Assembly (NCBI GenBank): GCA_049324275.1
Contig: JBMOLG010000010.1
Location: 147,977 to 211,976 of the forward strand
Source: Nanobdellota archaeon
Lineage (GTDB): Archaea; Nanobdellota; Nanobdellia; Pacearchaeales; GW2011-AR1
Length of the DNA stretch: 64,000 bases
Direction of reading: 5' to 3'
Part shown: positions 56,598 through 63,573 of the stretch, piece after piece
Layout: every line of letters starts with the position of its first letter
How positions within the stretch are numbered: the stretch's first letter is position 1
The notes under the pieces: generated by a model
Told to the model about the DNA's origin: nothing
Database searches by the model: none
Seen by the model: only the letters and a program-made list of their open reading frames with translations
Made by a program: the position numbers and the translations under genes

Positions 56598-57524
56598 CTA
56601 TGGAAAGATTTTGAATCTGAAATTATAAAGAGTCCAGTTTAATAAAAATAAAACTAACGCTGCTATCAATAAATAAAGAGATAAATCTATTGTAACTTCT
56701 TTTTCAATTTTTGCTAGAATATTTTGGAATGATTGATCAAGATTGTTTATGTTGTCTCCTCTGAAATATCTTCCATTTGTGCTGAATGCCAATGATTTTA
56801 GGGTATCTTCATTTATCTTTGATATTGTTCCAAATTCTGTTATTCCCCCTTCAATTGTCCCTGCTGCAATTGTATTTATGACAATGTTATTATTTTTTGT
56901 ATAATCTATAATATCTGCAATATCTCCTTTATTTAATTGGCCGTCGCTGATTAAAATTATTGATTTCATTTTTCTGTCATGCATTAAATCGTCTGCGGTC
57001 TTTACTGCATTAATGACATTCGTCCCTTCAATACTGCTGAATTCTATGCTATCCAAAGATGATTTTATTTTTAATTTTGAAGTTTCCAAGTCCTGATAAA
57101 TTTCAACAACACCTGAAAATCCCACAATTCCAATTTCCACGCCTGAGGATAGCGAGTCTACAAATTTGCCTGCTGATTTTTTTGCTGCTTCCAACCTATT
57201 TGGCTGTATATCTGCAGTCTTCATGCTTGATGATGTGTCGATAACTATAACATATGAAAAAGCACTTGTTTTAGTTATATATGAAACCTGCATCCCTGCA
57301 ATTGCAAAAATTATCAGGACTAAAATTAATATATTAATGTATAATGATAAAAAATTCTTTGAGAAGAATTCTATGTTCGAAAATCTTTCGAGCGCCTCGA
57401 AATTTGAAAAGACAATTGCCTTCTTTTTGTTGTAAATTAGTCCCATAAAATAAATAAAAATAAATAAAGGCACGATTAAAAGCAGATAAAGAAAATAAGG
57501 ATACAAAAATAAAATTTTAACCAT
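56598..57524 (-). CDS. BatA-like membrane-anchored von Willebrand factor A (VWA) protein
   Basis: Two N-terminal TM helices, the MIDAS motif 'VIVIDTSSSM', 'ILISDGQ', and a C-terminal TM helix. The start overlaps the DUF58 stop by 8 nt. Confidence 0.8.
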   Translation of the reverse strand: MVKILFLYPYFLYLLLIVPLFIFIYFMGLIYNKKKAIVFSNFEALERFSNIEFFSKNFLSLYINILILVLIIFAIAGMQVSYITKTSAFSYVIVIDTSSSMKTADIQPNRLEAAKKSAGKFVDSLSSGVEIGIVGFSGVVEIYQDLETSKLKIKSSLDSIEFSSIEGTNVINAVKTADDLMHDRKMKSIILISDGQLNKGDIADIIDYTKNNNIVINTIAAGTIEGGITEFGTISKINEDTLKSLAFSTNGRYFRGDNINNLDQSFQNILAKIEKEVTIDLSLYLLIAALVLFLLNWTLYNFRFKIFP

Positions 57525-58404
57525 ATCTTCTTCTCCTGGTCCTTTCTTTTAAAAAGTTCATTAATGGCATGATGAATGGCTTGTCTGTAGACAATTCTAA
57601 AATATCTATGTTTGATTCCCTGAAAATTTTTTTGACTGCGTTTTTTTGAAGCAGGGCATTTTCTTTGTACTTATCAGCAACAAGCTGCGGTTCTATGAGC
57701 ATCTGATTCTTGGAAAAAGGGTCTTGCACTACCATTTGACAGGGGATATCCGGAAGTTCTTCATCCATTTTATCACGTACCATTATTGCCATAGTTTCGC
57801 ATTTATGAGCTAAAAATTTCAGTTCTTTTTCAAAGCCTTTTTTTAAATGAATAAAATCTGAAATTAATATGAGCATTGAAGATGATTTAGTAAAATTCAG
57901 CATATTATTAACAATCTTTCCAAAATCTGTATTCCCCCCATATAACTCCGGTTCTGTTAAAAATTTGATAAACAAATTAAATTGCTTGATATTTTTTGAA
58001 GCAGGAATGACTTTCACAAAATGATCTGTAAACATTACCAAACCGATGTTATCTCCTGAACCCAATACAAGATGGCTGAATGTCAATATTAAATCTATTG
58101 CATATTCTGATTTCAAAATGTCTTTTGAGCCGAATAACATACTATTGCTGACGTTAACTGCGAAGTAAACATCAAGATTTCTTTCTTCAACATATTGTTT
58201 CACAATTAATTCATTTGCACGCGCACTGGCTTTCCAGTCTATCAATGCAGCATCATCATCTGGCGTAAGATTTCTATAAGAATCAAATTCCATTCCCTTC
58301 CCTCCAAAAGCTCTTTCATAAATAGACCTTCGATACTTTAATGATTTTGCCCTTTGGATGGCCGCAATATTTGATCCAAAATTTGTCTTGAATTTTTTTG
58401 GCAT
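57517..58404 (-). CDS. DUF58-family protein (MoxR operon partner)
   Basis: 'YRNLTPDDDAALIDWKASARANELIVKQYVEERNLDVYFAVNVSNSM' is the typical DUF58 core. The start lies 1 nt after the MoxR stop. Confidence 0.8.
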   Translation of the reverse strand: MPKKFKTNFGSNIAAIQRAKSLKYRRSIYERAFGGKGMEFDSYRNLTPDDDAALIDWKASARANELIVKQYVEERNLDVYFAVNVSNSMLFGSKDILKSEYAIDLILTFSHLVLGSGDNIGLVMFTDHFVKVIPASKNIKQFNLFIKFLTEPELYGGNTDFGKIVNNMLNFTKSSSMLILISDFIHLKKGFEKELKFLAHKCETMAIMVRDKMDEELPDIPCQMVVQDPFSKNQMLIEPQLVADKYKENALLQKNAVKKIFRESNIDILELSTDKPFIMPLMNFLKERTRRRRYG

Positions 58405-62400: not shown

Positions 62401-63573
62401 TATTGCTGTCCTTTCATTGTTGCAAATATATGTGATTGACGGAGGAGAATTTTTATTTAAAACTCTTAGCAATAAAAGCTGGCTTTTTGATGCATTGACA
62501 GGATTTGTACCATTATCTGTAATTGTAAGATTCAATGTATAATTTCCGACATCATTTTTTTGAGGGATAAATGTGATATTAAAAACCCCAGTTGCTGAAT
62601 TGAAGGTATAATTTGATTGGCTGAATAATGTGCAATTTGTATTATTTCTATCAGACCAATGGATTGTCTGGCAGCTTAGAAAACTTAAGTTTAAAATGTA
62701 TGGCGTATTTGTTTCTTCGTCTGCTACATTAAAAGTTCTTGAAAATGTTTCAGTTATATTGAATGATTGATTTGCAAGATTTGTGAAGTATGGAGCGTCA
62801 TTCACTGCTGTTATGTTTACATCGAGAAATGCCGATATTATTGGACTTTCGGTATCTCTCACTGTTAATTCTATTTTCTTTAATCCTGTATTTGAATCTG
62901 TTGTTATGTTAATTTCAAGCAAACCTGTTGTTGAATTTATTGTGAAATTTGTCAATGTTGTATTGCTTGATGGATAATAGCCGTATGTTAAAACATCATT
63001 TAAATCATCATCACTTACATTTGAACTAAAATTATAATAGCAAAATGTGTCTTCATTGCATCTTAACATATCTTTGGTTCCATCTAAATTGAAATCAATA
63101 TATCCTAACTTGTTTAAAATGTATGGCGGAGTATTCGTTATACTTATGGCATCATAAACTATGATTGCAACTGAATTATTTGTGCAATTAACACTTGAGT
63201 TTAACAGTCCCTTATGGCTAAAACTCTTATTATATCGCCATGATTGATTTGTTGTGTTATAAATCATATTTTGCCAAGTCGTCCATGTTCCATTTTCATT
63301 AAATCTAATTGTACAGTTTGCATAATTTTGATTCAAAATACTTGTAGAATTAGTAAAATTGGCGTAAAAGTAATTATTAGAATCATTTATTGATTTATCT
63401 TTTTTATCACAATATGTGGTGCATATTGAATAATGTAATGGTTCAGCTTCATCAGTATCATCCCAAAGTTCAAGATTCAGCCCTTGGCTTGAGCTTGAAG
63501 TTCGTGCAATAACTACTGTTATAAGGCTTACAATCAGAATTAAGATTAAAAAAACCGCTTCCTCTTTTTTCAT
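59404..63573 (-). CDS. Giant (1389 aa) surface protein with cadherin/Ig-like repeats, a poly-Gly linker and a C-terminal TM anchor
   Basis: Signal/anchor 'VFLILILIVSLITVVIA'. Repeat boundaries recur: 'VNDAPYF', 'TNDAPEI', 'SNHPPVL', 'KNSPPSI', 'ANTAPQW'. N-x-S/T sequons are very numerous. A 'PSTPGGGGGGGGAS' linker is encoded by the GC-rich tract at 60093-60122. The C-terminal TM is 'YYASIATLIIFVFGLLAYVFKRIRFKK'. The stop overlaps the MoxR start (TAATG). Confidence 0.75.
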   Translation of the reverse strand: MKKEEAVFLILILIVSLITVVIARTSSSSQGLNLELWDDTDEAEPLHYSICTTYCDKKDKSINDSNNYFYANFTNSTSILNQNYANCTIRFNENGTWTTWQNMIYNTTNQSWRYNKSFSHKGLLNSSVNCTNNSVAIIVYDAISITNTPPYILNKLGYIDFNLDGTKDMLRCNEDTFCYYNFSSNVSDDDLNDVLTYGYYPSSNTTLTNFTINSTTGLLEINITTDSNTGLKKIELTVRDTESPIISAFLDVNITAVNDAPYFTNLANQSFNITETFSRTFNVADEETNTPYILNLSFLSCQTIHWSDRNNTNCTLFSQSNYTFNSATGVFNITFIPQKNDVGNYTLNLTITDNGTNPVNASKSQLLLLRVLNKNSPPSITYICNNERTAIEDSEFTCWINTTDVDETQYINFSSNFTWFKFNNSANSITISSNISTGYNASAQVKFTPNDSIVGNWSVNISVIDNSTSPGVLTKMNSSVINFYIVNKNDSVNLEFRNNFTAYQNYTYQIRVNATDEDLLMRQTNIYDENLTFSVKNISGEDLSWINTIYLAEQGNMSSIALNFTVNSTLAGKNYTLNISVTDANLNSSDSQLFTIFMIANTAPQWNTGLNLSYNLSEDEFFYLNLSDYASDTNENNLTFNYTLNGNFSCFSINSTTGIINFSANDSNIGFHRVNVSISDGFAISDIKILNFTINNTNDAPEIQSSIGTNIPNSTFLLNTAHASEGNFTKFIINISDDDFLIPDSQKQFYNESITVNVTIINSTGSNVNLLNFTSLYLAGSISGFRNMSSYSAEFTPEKINVGNYSVTINASDLNNQSSLFSFNLTIHESNHPPVLDSIQNQTSSILEQLYVDIDATDLEDINDSYGNFTYSIRNMTINGNFLVINSTMGIINFTLNSTYAGTWEFNVSVNDSQNLVSSKIFKLTVYNYPEMNYPNKSFSFNLEENLSYNFVFKANHSVQDNLNYSLYINGILRNSTTGWGNNSNFTWAFTPNFTDETTCSGPISFILNVSNQKLSNSSSWNISINHSNYPLSFIQNIGGAAQKIVGYSPYALNLSDFFQDFDASDKCHNQTIGFTYSMFNSSLSSVQVSETNWTNSINPSLIFTFSGAGLANFSITAYEFNETNSSHFLNNATSNNFSLDLVVPTAPSTPGGGGGGGGGASISNVTKFISLKLITPQEVIIHKENSVQIPLQIKNNGFIDLEDIDISGAVLFNNMMTEDVKVYLPFSHIDTLKIGESVNLTLDIYTNNKVGRYKATVYANVSSPELFDWADFFLELMEANETETQEILLFTDQLVSGNPECMELNEVLEEAKDLFDHGNFEEAFNKAQEAINACNEAITHEQVKYADKFFKDKFYYASIATLIIFVFGLLAYVFKRIRFKKLERENYI

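Follow-up and report, generated by a model that had tools for sequence, protein, structure and literature searches.

A cadherin-like surface glycoprotein and a Bat-type MoxR-DUF58-VWA trio as a putative cell-surface module of DPANN archaea

The window, i.e. the whole 64,000-nucleotide stretch of DNA analyzed here, from a tiny uncultured Nanobdellota archaeon (DPANN, Pacearchaeota type), carries on its minus strand consecutive genes for a giant surface protein, a MoxR ATPase, a DUF58 protein and a membrane VWA protein, and the list of open reading frames places all four where the sequence-only reading had put them (Table 1). As noted there, the stop codon of the giant gene and the start codon of the MoxR gene share a base at 59404 in TAATG, a 1-nt overlap. 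The MoxR and DUF58 genes are separated by a single nucleotide (TAA-A-ATG) and the DUF58 and VWA genes overlap by 8 nt (ATGGTTAA); the locus features of this four-gene set are far outside chance expectation. Between the end of the last gene of a plus-strand operon (56489) and the first base of the VWA stop codon (56598) lie 108 nt, as counted previously. The two operons do converge, although the arrangement is tail-to-tail and not head-to-tail as described. A tie between the module and this ATPase-[A-B]x2 operon was not borne out, as the module is never accompanied by that operon in relatives. The convergent AAA+ operon looks like an insertion specific to this genome.

Table 1. Features of the locus, with positions in the window.
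Feature	Position	Strand	Detail
Giant gene	59404-63573	-	1389 aa
MoxR-proper (AAA_3) AAA+ ATPase	58406-59404	-	332 aa
DUF58 protein	57517-58404	-	295 aa
BatA-type membrane VWA protein	56598-57524	-	308 aa
Single-TM protein, helical K/E-rich cytoplasmic part (DUF4381-like family c4)	50438-51544	+	family profile 3.9e-33
BRE/TATA-like promoter element of giant gene, AAAAGTTTTTATATT	63596-63610	-	TATA start -32/-30 from ATG
Candidate internal TATA-like element, TTTAAGAA	59429-59436	-	-32 of MoxR ATG, within 3' end of giant ORF
Giant: signal peptide, aa 1-24, MKKEEAVFLILILIVSLITVVIAR	63502-63573	-	hydrophobic span 5-23
Giant: distal N-terminal beta domain, aa 25-146, Cys-containing	63136-63501	-	most variable domain
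Giant: about nine cadherin-like beta-sandwich repeats, aa 147-1145	60139-63135	-	profile, AF2, Foldseek
Giant: Ser/Thr/Pro-rich flexible hinge with Gly9 run, aa 1146-1166	60076-60138	-	low pLDDT
Giant: membrane-proximal beta-sandwich of CTD, aa 1167-1279	59737-60075	-	AF2 strands
Giant: helical hairpin, long helix into TM anchor, basic cytoplasmic tail, KRIRFKKLERENYI	59407-59736	-	AF2, alignment, TM

In the AF2 model of the giant protein's N-terminus, a helix at residues 5-18 is followed by beta domains. The distal domain is built of beta strands (pLDDT mostly 80-95) and is both the least conserved part of the family alignment (identity 0.21-0.22 versus 0.29-0.45 elsewhere) and the richest in gaps (31-48%). 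The repeats that follow have ND[AP]P linkers, conserved acidic clusters and dense N-glycosylation sequons. Repeated domain-boundary motifs had been reported, and N[DTSH][AP]P was found at six positions (residues 147, 258, 375, 601, 698 and 831); the reported richness in sequons is equally real, with 110 N-x-S/T sites against 38±5 expected from composition-preserving shuffles. Invariant residues of the family include N258, D259, P261, D285, E287, D516, D737, D739 and D858. A Pfam search with the window's own giant protein returned no cadherin or Ig model above cut-off; the sole PDB matches of the family-alignment profile were cadherins, namely protocadherin-15, CELSR1 and cadherin-23 (E 8e-10 to 1e-7). 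AF2 models of giant segments reached pLDDT of 88.6 and 90.9, and Foldseek searches with the repeat models matched Ig arrays, protocadherins among them. By family profile, AF2 and Foldseek, the repeats are, as had been proposed, true cadherin-like beta-sandwich domains and not low-complexity sequence, and their residues suggest that they are putatively of the Ca2+ type.

The hinge beyond the repeats alone drops under a pLDDT of 50 (aa 1151-1166, residues 227-242 of the model). Its position is kept across 62 homologues with a glycine run of 0-11 (median 4); in the window the run has nine glycines, not the eight counted earlier. In the C-terminal part (CTD), beta-sandwich strands at model residues 248-354 (pLDDT about 90-97) precede the helices of the hairpin and anchor region (356-374, 376-393 and 397-464), and a few giant homologues gave weak CARDB/DUF11 matches. 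The cysteine pair C1302/C1335 of an NPEC...C motif is invariant, as are N1299 and P1300. The C-terminal anchor expected from the sequence was found as one TM segment (1357-1375) with a basic tail behind it. What stays constant is the CTD, which stands C-terminal in proteins whose ectodomains differ and whose lengths range from 1399 to 3991 aa, and three of the five such proteins retrieved adjoin a MoxR-DUF58-VWA trio. At least 557 clusters matched the CTD profile at E<=1e-30, and within the searches made the giant family, which combines cadherin-like repeats with the CTD, was found in DPANN lineages only.

Family assignments and motif conservation uphold the description of the MoxR-DUF58-VWA core as Bat-like. 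MoxR matched AAA_3 (6.8e-59, 197.9 bits) and AAA_lid_2 (1.4e-21, 76.4 bits), and all 59 homologues keep its Walker A (GxPGxAKT), Walker B (DEINR) and sensor (N163) residues; by these motifs it is predicted to be catalytically intact. The DUF58 protein matched DUF58 (2.2e-39, 135.3 bits) and VWA_2 (35.4 bits) and has a VWA-like fold with a degenerate MIDAS, NVSNS here versus DxSxN in most homologues. No TM segments were predicted in either protein. The VWA protein matched VWA_2 (1e-19, 71.6 bits) and VWA (6.8e-15, 56.2 bits); its BatA N-terminal domain scored 25.0 bits, just below the 25.9-bit cut-off, and NCBIfam BatA models scored far under their cut-offs. It consists of TM1, a K-rich loop, TM2, the VWA domain and TM3 (TMs at 12-30, 58-76 and 277-295), with an intact MIDAS (D96/S98/S100/T168/D194, 98-100% conserved). 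This architecture is identical in kind to that of Borrelia BB0173, a BatA-type protein with three TMs and a VWA domain facing the periplasm (PMC5700661).

The plus-strand single-TM protein is a probable fifth member of the module. In relatives its family lies convergent to the VWA gene and about 0-100 nt past it (31 loci), and in this genome inserted genes part the two. Weak matches to PF14316 (DUF4381), a member of bacterial Bat-like operons, were obtained for 11 of 33 family members.

The proposed translational coupling, in which the giant gene would open the operon, is restricted to this genome and a few others. The gap between giant and MoxR genes in relatives has a median of 41 nt, and most gaps are 20-70 nt long with a conserved BRE/TATA-like element. 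TATA-like motifs peak genome-wide at -30 to -26 relative to start codons; the element before MoxR lies at the same distance from its start as the giant gene's own TATA, and TTTAAWAW elements were found 5' of MoxR in 29 of 40 relatives versus 2.7% of control windows. No terminator was found between the giant and MoxR genes. A separate promoter there would by the sequence-only reading itself count against a single operon, and the candidate one before MoxR weakens that claim. The giant gene and the trio probably have separate promoters, with read-through possible, and are probably not an obligately coupled operon. In Aenigmarchaeota-type loci the two are transcribed divergently.

The linkage itself is conserved in relatives and across DPANN lineages according to our neighbourhood survey. 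Adjacency was seen in 8/8 loci of the nearest relatives, and of the 59 related loci that could be evaluated, 52 have MoxR directly downstream of the giant gene, the remainder having an insertion between them (3) or no MoxR (4). The trio is inverted and head-to-head in four Aenigmarchaeota-type loci with adjacency retained; giant and trio are co-directional in another distant lineage and convergent at locus L099. Among the nearest 41 genomes, both were present in 10, MoxR only in 1, the giant gene only in 0 and neither in 30. Same-family high-quality genomes had both in 9 cases and neither in at least 19 among those listed. In a phylum sample of 401 genomes giant and MoxR co-occur with an odds ratio of 16.5 (p 1.5e-25), a figure confounded by shared ancestry, and the CTD was undetected in 109 of 252 MoxR-positive genomes. 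Two Nanoarchaeia genomes have a DUF87/HerA-type ATPase after the giant gene and the MoxR trio elsewhere, beside housekeeping genes; the trio stands alone, adjoining an RFC-like gene, in G437 and G438. As these exceptions show, the trio does not strictly need the giant protein. In related genomes giant and trio were gained, lost and kept adjacent jointly, and therefore the ATPase set very probably serves the surface protein.

The explanation we favor, with a probability of roughly 60%, is a dedicated DPANN cell-surface module in which a Bat-type ATP-driven trio acts on a glycosylated cadherin-like fibre. The giant protein would be a Sec-exported, heavily N-glycosylated fibre comprising, from the tip inward, the variable domain, about nine Ca2+-type repeats, the Ser/Thr/Pro-Gly hinge and the CTD, with a repeat array roughly 40-50 nm long. 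The CTD would consist of the beta-sandwich, a disulfide-stapled helical hairpin, the single TM anchor and the short basic tail. The three-TM protein would expose its VWA domain on the outer face, as the positive-inside rule and the BB0173 homology suggest, and the intact MIDAS of this domain may bind the CTD of the giant protein or of a neighbouring copy. Cytoplasmic MoxR hexamers and DUF58 would contact cytoplasmic loops and tails, the DUF4381-like protein would probably be the trio's partner, and ATP would be spent to assemble, position or remodel the anchored fibre, a direction of action that we infer. We know of no established biochemical function for Bat-type operons, so calling the trio a helper is an analogy. 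The fibre may serve in cell-cell contact, host contact or as an envelope component; that the chaperone/VWA module matures or anchors an adhesin, and that this adhesin is a host-attachment factor, as suggested by the sequence-only reading, is conceivable.

S-layer glycoproteins of Haloferax and Halobacterium combine a signal peptide, an Ig-like array, N-glycosylation sequons, a Ser/Thr-rich linker and a C-terminal TM anchor, and the architecture of the giant protein agrees with theirs. It could be the main S-layer-type envelope glycoprotein and not an adhesin, with the trio building or maintaining the lattice and the fixed length setting envelope geometry. Its length is tightly kept (about 1250-1430 aa in more than 100 homologues), its domains correspond one to one as orthologues throughout the order (cognate scores 128-387 versus 50-116 for non-cognate) where adhesins tend to vary repeat number, and Makarova et al. 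place predicted S-layer proteins in MoxR-vWA neighbourhoods (PMC5898192). However, a gene missing from about two thirds of high-quality family/order genomes is a poor fit to an indispensable wall protein, and variability is highest in the distal domain, as expected of a ligand-binding tip, which leaves this reading doubtful. Less probable still, the trio could be a general Bat-like module for stress or envelope maintenance that has clients of its own and adjoins the giant gene only because synteny was inherited or envelope genes are co-regulated. The sampled genomes with a trio and no detected CTD protein, the solitary trios beside an RFC-like gene and the trio's probable own promoter would suit such a module, and bacterial Bat operons have been linked to stress phenotypes (PMC3557215, PMC11834572). 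Yet the adjacency outlasts inversion and phylum-level divergence, gain and loss are joint within one order with no giant-only genome among the 41, and the association tracks the CTD despite differing ectodomains.

Makarova, Galperin and Koonin (PMC5898192) interpreted the arCOG01314-MoxR-vWA neighbourhood as a predicted new complex for secretion or membrane remodelling, and the trio could by the same token be a dedicated export device for the giant protein. We consider this very improbable: with its ordinary N-terminal signal peptide and stop-transfer anchor the giant protein should need nothing beyond Sec, none of the module's components is a channel former, and the signature DUF4350 protein was found in none of the 41 related genomes (this one and 40 relatives). 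That the genes form a MoxR-vWA conflict or defence system such as Kaur et al. (2020) described is scarcely credible; MoxR does have a secondary bpMoxR match, but at 38.7 bits against 197.9 for AAA_3, beta-propeller, VMAP and effector domains are all missing, every partner is an envelope protein, and the adjoining plus-strand operon is not kept with the module.

Pairings of this sort have been predicted before, the nearest being Bat-type operons and the archaeal arCOG01314-MoxR-vWA-Ig-like complex. Bat-type operons, including Borrelia bb0170-bb0176 and Leptospira bat, have the same core in the same order (MoxR-proper, DUF58, BatA-type), a BatA protein with an N-terminal two-TM segment, a VWA domain with MIDAS and a C-terminal TM, and likewise a DUF4381-like single-TM companion; the experimental location of the BB0173 VWA domain outside the cytoplasmic membrane also fits (PMC5700661). 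In contrast, BatB, BatC (TPR), BatD and BatE (SH3) are missing here, the BatA-domain match falls short of the Pfam threshold and NCBIfam scores are lower still, the host is a single-membrane archaeon, and the module has instead a cadherin-like glycoprotein of 1389 aa that brings a conserved anchor module of its own. The predicted arCOG01314 (DUF4350)-MoxR-vWA-Ig-like S-layer protein complex, read as a single envelope-associated complex (Makarova, Galperin, Koonin 2015, PMC5898192), also brings together membrane-anchored or secreted Ig-like surface proteins, a MoxR ATPase of COG0714 and a vWA protein of DUF58 type; here a BatA-type membrane VWA protein replaces DUF4350, and the surface protein, with cadherin-like repeats and CTD, is from another family.

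The bifidobacterial PFNA cluster (pkb2-fn3-aaa-atp-duf58-tgm) similarly encodes, directly 5' of MoxR ATPase and DUF58 genes, a surface protein of beta-sandwich (FN3) type that has been implicated in binding ligands and in adhesion (PMC8430577). It differs in being bacterial, in having a Ser/Thr kinase and a transglutaminase in place of the BatA-type VWA protein, and in its small FN3 protein, unrelated in sequence to the giant. The giant protein has no EC1 strand-swap features of cadherins, and its repeat number is fixed where that of cadherin-type adhesins varies. Tandem beta-sandwich repeats of about 100-110 aa, ND[AP]P inter-repeat linkers and acidic clusters conserved where cadherins have their Ca2+ sites are common to it, to the ectodomains of cadherins and protocadherins and to prokaryotic cadherin-like/Big_9/He_PIG repeat adhesins.

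An ORF scan of the window recovered four genes in a row on the minus strand, with coordinates identical to those proposed by the sequence-only reading: a giant cadherin-like surface protein, followed by the MoxR, DUF58 and VWA genes, here called the trio. The junctions are also as that reading described them. The giant and MoxR genes meet in TAATG with the single base 59404 common to both, MoxR and DUF58 are separated by 1 nt (TAA-A-ATG), DUF58 and VWA share an 8-nt overlap (ATGGTTAA), and 108 nt lie between the stop codons of VWA and of the convergent plus-strand operon. This spacer (56490-56597) gave no Rfam match and folded no better than its shuffles (z -0.33 and +0.29); read by eye, it looks richer in G+C than its flanks. 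The assembly of the window's genome comprises 0.9 Mb in 19 contigs and is 86% complete.

Features of the giant-trio locus, in window coordinates
Feature	Coordinates	Strand	Description
Giant	59404-63573	-	1389 aa, ORF scan
MoxR	58406-59404	-	332 aa, ORF scan
DUF58	57517-58404	-	295 aa, ORF scan
VWA protein	56598-57524	-	308 aa, ORF scan
Convergent neighbour of VWA family	50438-51544	+	single-TM, K/E-rich helical, conserved-neighbour family
Candidate MoxR TATA-like element	59429-59436	-	TTTAAGAA; -32 of MoxR start, inside giant ORF

Profile scores place the family identities of the trio beyond doubt. The MoxR protein is assigned to the MoxR-proper (MRP) AAA+ ATPases by AAA_3 (197.9 bits, cut-off 27, 6.8e-59) and AAA_lid_2 (76.4 bits, cut-off 22.7, 1.4e-21). 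Its Walker A (GVPGTAKT), Walker B (DEINR) and sensor-1 (N163) motifs are intact and 100% conserved in 59 homologues, so that by motifs it is catalytically intact and a predicted ATPase. The gene directly after it encodes a DUF58 protein (PF01882, 135.3 bits, cut-off 23.4, 2.2e-39), and neither MoxR nor DUF58 has a transmembrane (TM) segment. The VWA protein matches VWA_2 (71.6 bits, 1e-19) and is ordered as TM1, a K-rich loop, TM2, the VWA domain and a C-terminal TM3. Its N-terminus, which holds the first two TM segments, scores 25.0 bits against the BatA segment PF07584 (cut-off 25.9), and BatA matches are recorded for distant homologues. The metal site of the VWA domain (MIDAS, DxSxS...T...D) is complete, with D96, S98, S100, T168 and D194 conserved at 98-100%. 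The same TM/VWA layout is found in the Borrelia BatA-type protein BB0173, whose VWA domain was found by experiment to lie on the periplasmic side (PMC5700661). From these experiments and the K-rich TM1-TM2 loop we infer that the VWA domain lies outside the cytoplasmic membrane. In two relatives the MoxR open reading frame is 869 aa (L074:11673-14282) or 886 aa (L064:12465-15125) long due to an intein inside AAA_3. It carries a LAGLIDADG homing endonuclease and is inserted after AAA_3 profile position 78 (Intein_splicing 1.1e-19, LAGLIDADG_3 5.8e-14).

The giant had been described as a glycosylated array of cadherin-like repeats, and it could instead have been low-complexity sequence. Its own sequence reaches none of the Pfam gathering thresholds for Cadherin or Cadherin-like families; He_PIG (21.2, cut-off 24) and Big_9 (19.3, cut-off 23.6) remain sub-threshold, as does the NCBIfam tandem-95 repeat (36.5 versus a threshold of 90), and PF00028/PF17963 matches recorded for homologues are flagged as faint wherever a flag is given. 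A profile of 62 homologues, when compared with PDB sequences, matched cadherins only (protocadherin-15 at 8.4e-10, CELSR1 at 9e-10, cadherin-23). AlphaFold2 models built with family alignments as input are confident over residues 1-930 (pLDDT 88.6) and 925-1389 (pLDDT 90.9), and their repeat part is all-beta, with tandem beta-sandwich repeats of ~100-110 aa. Foldseek matched the model to multi-Ig arrays, including protocadherin and cadherin ectodomains (12-15% identity for protocadherins). Six clear N[DTSH][AP]P sites bear out the repeated domain-boundary motif, and in the family alignments the ND[AP]P-type linker residues N258, D259 and P261 are invariant, as are D285, E287, D516, D737, D739 and D858; D353 is conserved at 90%. 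The acidic clusters D285 E286 E287, D516/D518, D737/D739 and D858 fall where inter-repeat Ca2+ sites would be expected, which makes them candidate sites by motif position. Together the profile matches, models, structural hits and linker and acidic motifs identify real cadherin-like repeats and not low-complexity sequence. The richness in N-glycosylation sequons was likewise confirmed, with 110 N-x-S/T sites in the giant versus 38±5 in shuffles.

The least conserved part of the giant is its N-terminal domain (aa 25-146), and its constant part is the membrane-adjacent C-terminal module, which we refer to as the CTD. The two are separated by the repeats and by a Ser/Thr/Pro-Gly hinge (aa 1151-1166), the only segment that AlphaFold2 predicts to be disordered. 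The glycine run, previously given as (Gly)8, counts nine residues. The position of the hinge is conserved among homologues, with a run of 0-11 glycines. After the hinge, the model shows a beta-sandwich (~aa 1172-1278) and then two short helices and a long helix leading into the anchor; this helical part contains an invariant NPEC...C cysteine pair (C1302, C1335). The C-terminal anchor itself is as foreseen, one TM segment followed by a basic tail.

A search of 5.8 billion proteins returned 164 homologues of the giant. They are collinear, mostly 1250-1430 aa long and labelled Pacearchaeota, Nanoarchaeota or Woesearchaeota, the most distant being Aenigmarchaeota proteins at 26% identity; none carries a functional name. 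By these labels the window comes from a DPANN archaeon. Within the order, the repeats can be paired one-to-one as orthologues (cognate scores 128-387 versus non-cognate 50-116), and by this orthology the array is ancient and fixed, without expansion or contraction. At the distance of the Aenigmarchaeota proteins, cognate and non-cognate scores overlap and no one-to-one repeat orthology was discernible. The CTD is more widely distributed. A 227-residue CTD profile, searched exhaustively against 1.84 billion representatives, matched 1460 clusters (557 with E<=1e-30); the single CTD sequence, used in a word-indexed search, found only itself. The module almost always sits at the very C-terminus, in carriers of several length classes, and it ends proteins of 1399, 1440, 2255, 3313 and >3991 aa with differing ectodomains in other families of the class. 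In four hits (P0127, P0145, P0137 and P0135) it lies mid-protein, e.g. at residues 1085-1294 of 2255 aa, which suggests the fusion of two neighbouring anchored surface proteins. A C-terminal profile containing the CTD found no sequence relatives in the PDB, and Foldseek with the whole C-terminal model returned generic Ig arrays only and placed the CTD fold no closer.

The linkage of the giant to the trio is kept in related genomes, with the order giant, MoxR, DUF58, VWA in 8 of 8 loci (seven near relatives). We collected 71 loci from species-representative genomes, 59 of which extend 1.5 kb or more beyond the giant gene on its downstream side. MoxR follows immediately on the same strand in 52 of the 59, in 51 together with DUF58 and VWA; 1.2-3.7 kb is inserted between giant and MoxR in three, and MoxR is absent downstream in the remaining four. 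Adjacency is also found in other arrangements. The trio is inverted and head-to-head with the giant, ~80-120 nt apart, in Aenigmarchaeota-type loci (n=4), convergent with and adjacent to the 3313-aa CTD protein, and co-directional without a gap in one distant lineage. Among the 41 nearest genomes, giant and MoxR are both present in 10 and both missing in 30, MoxR occurs alone in one and the giant alone in none; high-quality genomes of the same family include nine with both and 19 listed with neither. Across a phylum sample of 401 genomes the odds ratio for giant and MoxR is 16.5 (p 1.5e-25), a value that ignores shared phylogeny; 10 of 11 giant-only genomes in this sample rest on weak matches, and 109 MoxR-positive genomes have no CTD. 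The repeated joint loss within one family and the adjacency preserved through inversion argue for giant and trio as a functional unit.

The sole near relative with an AAA_3 MoxR but an unmatched giant has it in a 640-aa open frame (G012:C2:35645-36034); in this ~100-contig assembly the giant partner may simply be unassembled. In two Nanoarchaeia genomes (L024:8001-13624 and L105:6001-11621) the giant gene overlaps a DUF87/HerA/Zot-like ATPase gene by 4 nt, and the MoxR-DUF58-VWA trio lies elsewhere, adjoining an RFC-like AAA gene. One ATPase partner may have been displaced by another in these loci.

The sequence-only reading took the four genes for a single, translationally coupled operon. The TAATG overlap is real in the window but is not conserved: among 40 relatives in which the MoxR start is well placed, the two genes overlap in only 3, and the median giant-MoxR gap is 41 nt. 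A sequence resembling the archaeal BRE/TATA, RRTTTAATAA, is recurrent in this gap or in the last codons of the giant (16/40 loci versus 0.17% of control windows), and TTTAAWAW is seen in the 65 nt before MoxR at 29 of 40 loci versus 2.7% of control windows. A GAGGTG Shine-Dalgarno sequence often comes after the motif, and several relatives have a TATA ~40-47 nt upstream of MoxR together with GAGGTG. A sigma-70 promoter and terminator scan gave no enrichment, and a sigma-70 model is not meaningful for an archaeon; TATA positions were analyzed in its place. In the window's genome TTTWWAWA motifs peak sharply at -30 to -26 from start codons (126 of 415 upstream regions), which suggests that its mRNAs are mostly leaderless. 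The giant gene has a TATA at -32/-30, and a candidate element for MoxR is included in the table. Given the non-conserved overlap and the conserved TATA-like motif, MoxR probably has a promoter of its own, and transcription may also read through from the giant gene. Separate promoters would also suit a cell that needs a structural protein and an ATPase in different quantities.

The convergence with the second AAA+ operon, which the sequence-only reading had pointed out, appears to be incidental. Relatives at loci L022-L096 were checked for a counterpart of the ATPase-[A-B]x2 operon (52795-56489, plus strand), and it stands beside the module in none of them. In the closest relatives (L049, L066 and L075) the convergent genes directly after VWA are homologues of the 51541-52647 product and of the single-TM, K/E-rich protein of the table, so the 3.7-kb operon looks like an insertion specific to the window's genome. 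The K/E-rich family is a conserved convergent neighbour of VWA in 31 loci, and 11 of its 33 members have weak DUF4381 matches. DUF4381 accompanies bacterial MoxR-DUF58-BatA operons, and for this reason the K/E-rich protein is probably a fifth member of the module. The DUF4381 matches replace a DUF4129-like tail module considered earlier. A suspected kinship between the 51541-52647 product and the Cys-rich C-terminal part of the ~660-830-aa paralogue described below was dropped since it rested on one weak match.

On the other side of the module, many relatives encode further membrane-anchored surface proteins on the same strand upstream of the giant. Directly before it lies a cadherin-like paralogue of ~660-830 aa that has a Gly hinge of its own and an anchor domain rich in Cys, accompanied by families of ~165, ~400 (weak WxLIP_HBD), ~220, ~370 and ~140 aa, all signal- or TM-anchored. 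Examples of this cluster are L062:3141-9329, L027:1-7929, L042:76-8004 and L022:70-5000, from relatives that include Aenigmarchaeota. The set was not found in the window's 86% complete genome.

From the observed folds, motifs, adjacency and co-occurrence of giant and trio, we infer a three-element model as the most economical one, including its topology, the VWA-CTD contact and the role of the fibre. The outward-facing VWA MIDAS would bind the CTD of the giant or organise neighbouring copies. On the cytoplasmic side, MoxR-DUF58 could assemble, position or remodel the anchored fibre, which itself could serve in contact, as the variable tip would allow, or in the envelope, in keeping with its fixed length. 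Export of the giant needs only Sec. A more speculative extension, against which we would give long odds, is an archaeal 'inside-out' adhesion switch. Here ATP-driven MoxR-DUF58 would act via the VWA protein and the CTD on a cadherin-like tether of fixed length (~40-50 nm), altering how it clusters or extends or how tightly it binds its ligand; the tether would both set and control episymbiotic DPANN-host contact. Such a switch, if true, would be a functional analogue of integrin activation, and with it the Bat/MoxR-DUF58-VWA systems would gain a first defined client.

Many bacteria and archaea carry MoxR-DUF58-VWA (Bat-type) operons, and we know of no established client or mechanism for them. 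The surface protein whose CTD follows the trio from one DPANN lineage to another is one obvious, conserved candidate, and it makes the long-standing question of the Bat client testable. It would also be an accessory envelope fibre kept in DPANN genomes of 0.6-1.3 Mb, which may mediate cell-cell or host contact.

Among known systems, the Bat (Bacteroides aerotolerance) operon in its complete form comprises BatI/MoxR, DUF58 and BatA to BatE (BatA, BatB, BatC, BatD, BatE). The Bat-like core of MoxR, DUF58 and a BatA-type VWA protein holds for the window, and BatB through BatE are absent: no BatB, TPR (BatC), BatD or SH3 (BatE) domains were found, either within the four genes or in the genes around them. 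The giant itself has no BatD match, nor does BatD figure in the list of 25 Pfam families for its 62 C-terminal homologues, and Pfam matches support neither a BatD nor a DUF4350 identity for the giant or its neighbours. MoxR-vWA-beta-propeller ternary conflict systems, reportedly described by Kaur et al. in 2020, are said to combine a bpMoxR-type ATPase with VMAP and beta-propeller or effector partners. We rejected this assignment, as bpMoxR scores 38.7 bits versus 197.9 bits for AAA_3; no VMAP, propeller or effector domains were found in the four genes or near them.

The giant resembles archaeal S-layer glycoproteins of the Haloferax csg type in its signal peptide, N-glycosylated Ig-like array, Ser/Thr-rich linker and C-terminal anchor, but it differs in not being clade-wide, as it is missing from 30 of the 41 nearest genomes and from the 19 high-quality genomes of the family listed with neither gene. 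By eye, no PGF motif of a PGF-CTERM/archaeosortase signal was found in its C-terminus. With cadherins it shares DxNDN[AP]PxF-like linkers and DxD/DRE-like acidic clusters, a putative basis for Ca2+-dependent rigidity or adhesion. Full-text searches on MoxR in DPANN and on cadherins in Pacearchaeota/DPANN turned up no account of the giant family or of its pairing with the trio. The nearest published concept is the complex of arCOG01314 (DUF4350), MoxR, vWA and an Ig-like S-layer protein, predicted by Makarova et al. to act in secretion or remodelling (PMC5898192). DUF4350 (PF14258), the arCOG01314 signature, is absent from the window's genome and 40 relatives, with control genomes responding; common to both are MoxR, a DUF58-type vWA protein and an Ig-like surface protein in one neighbourhood. 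The general pairing of MoxR/vWA with an Ig-like surface protein is already known as a prediction, which tempers the value of our finding. A bacterial analogue of the giant-trio locus is the bifidobacterial PFNA cluster, in which an FN3 protein is encoded with MoxR, DUF58 and a transglutaminase (PMC8430577).
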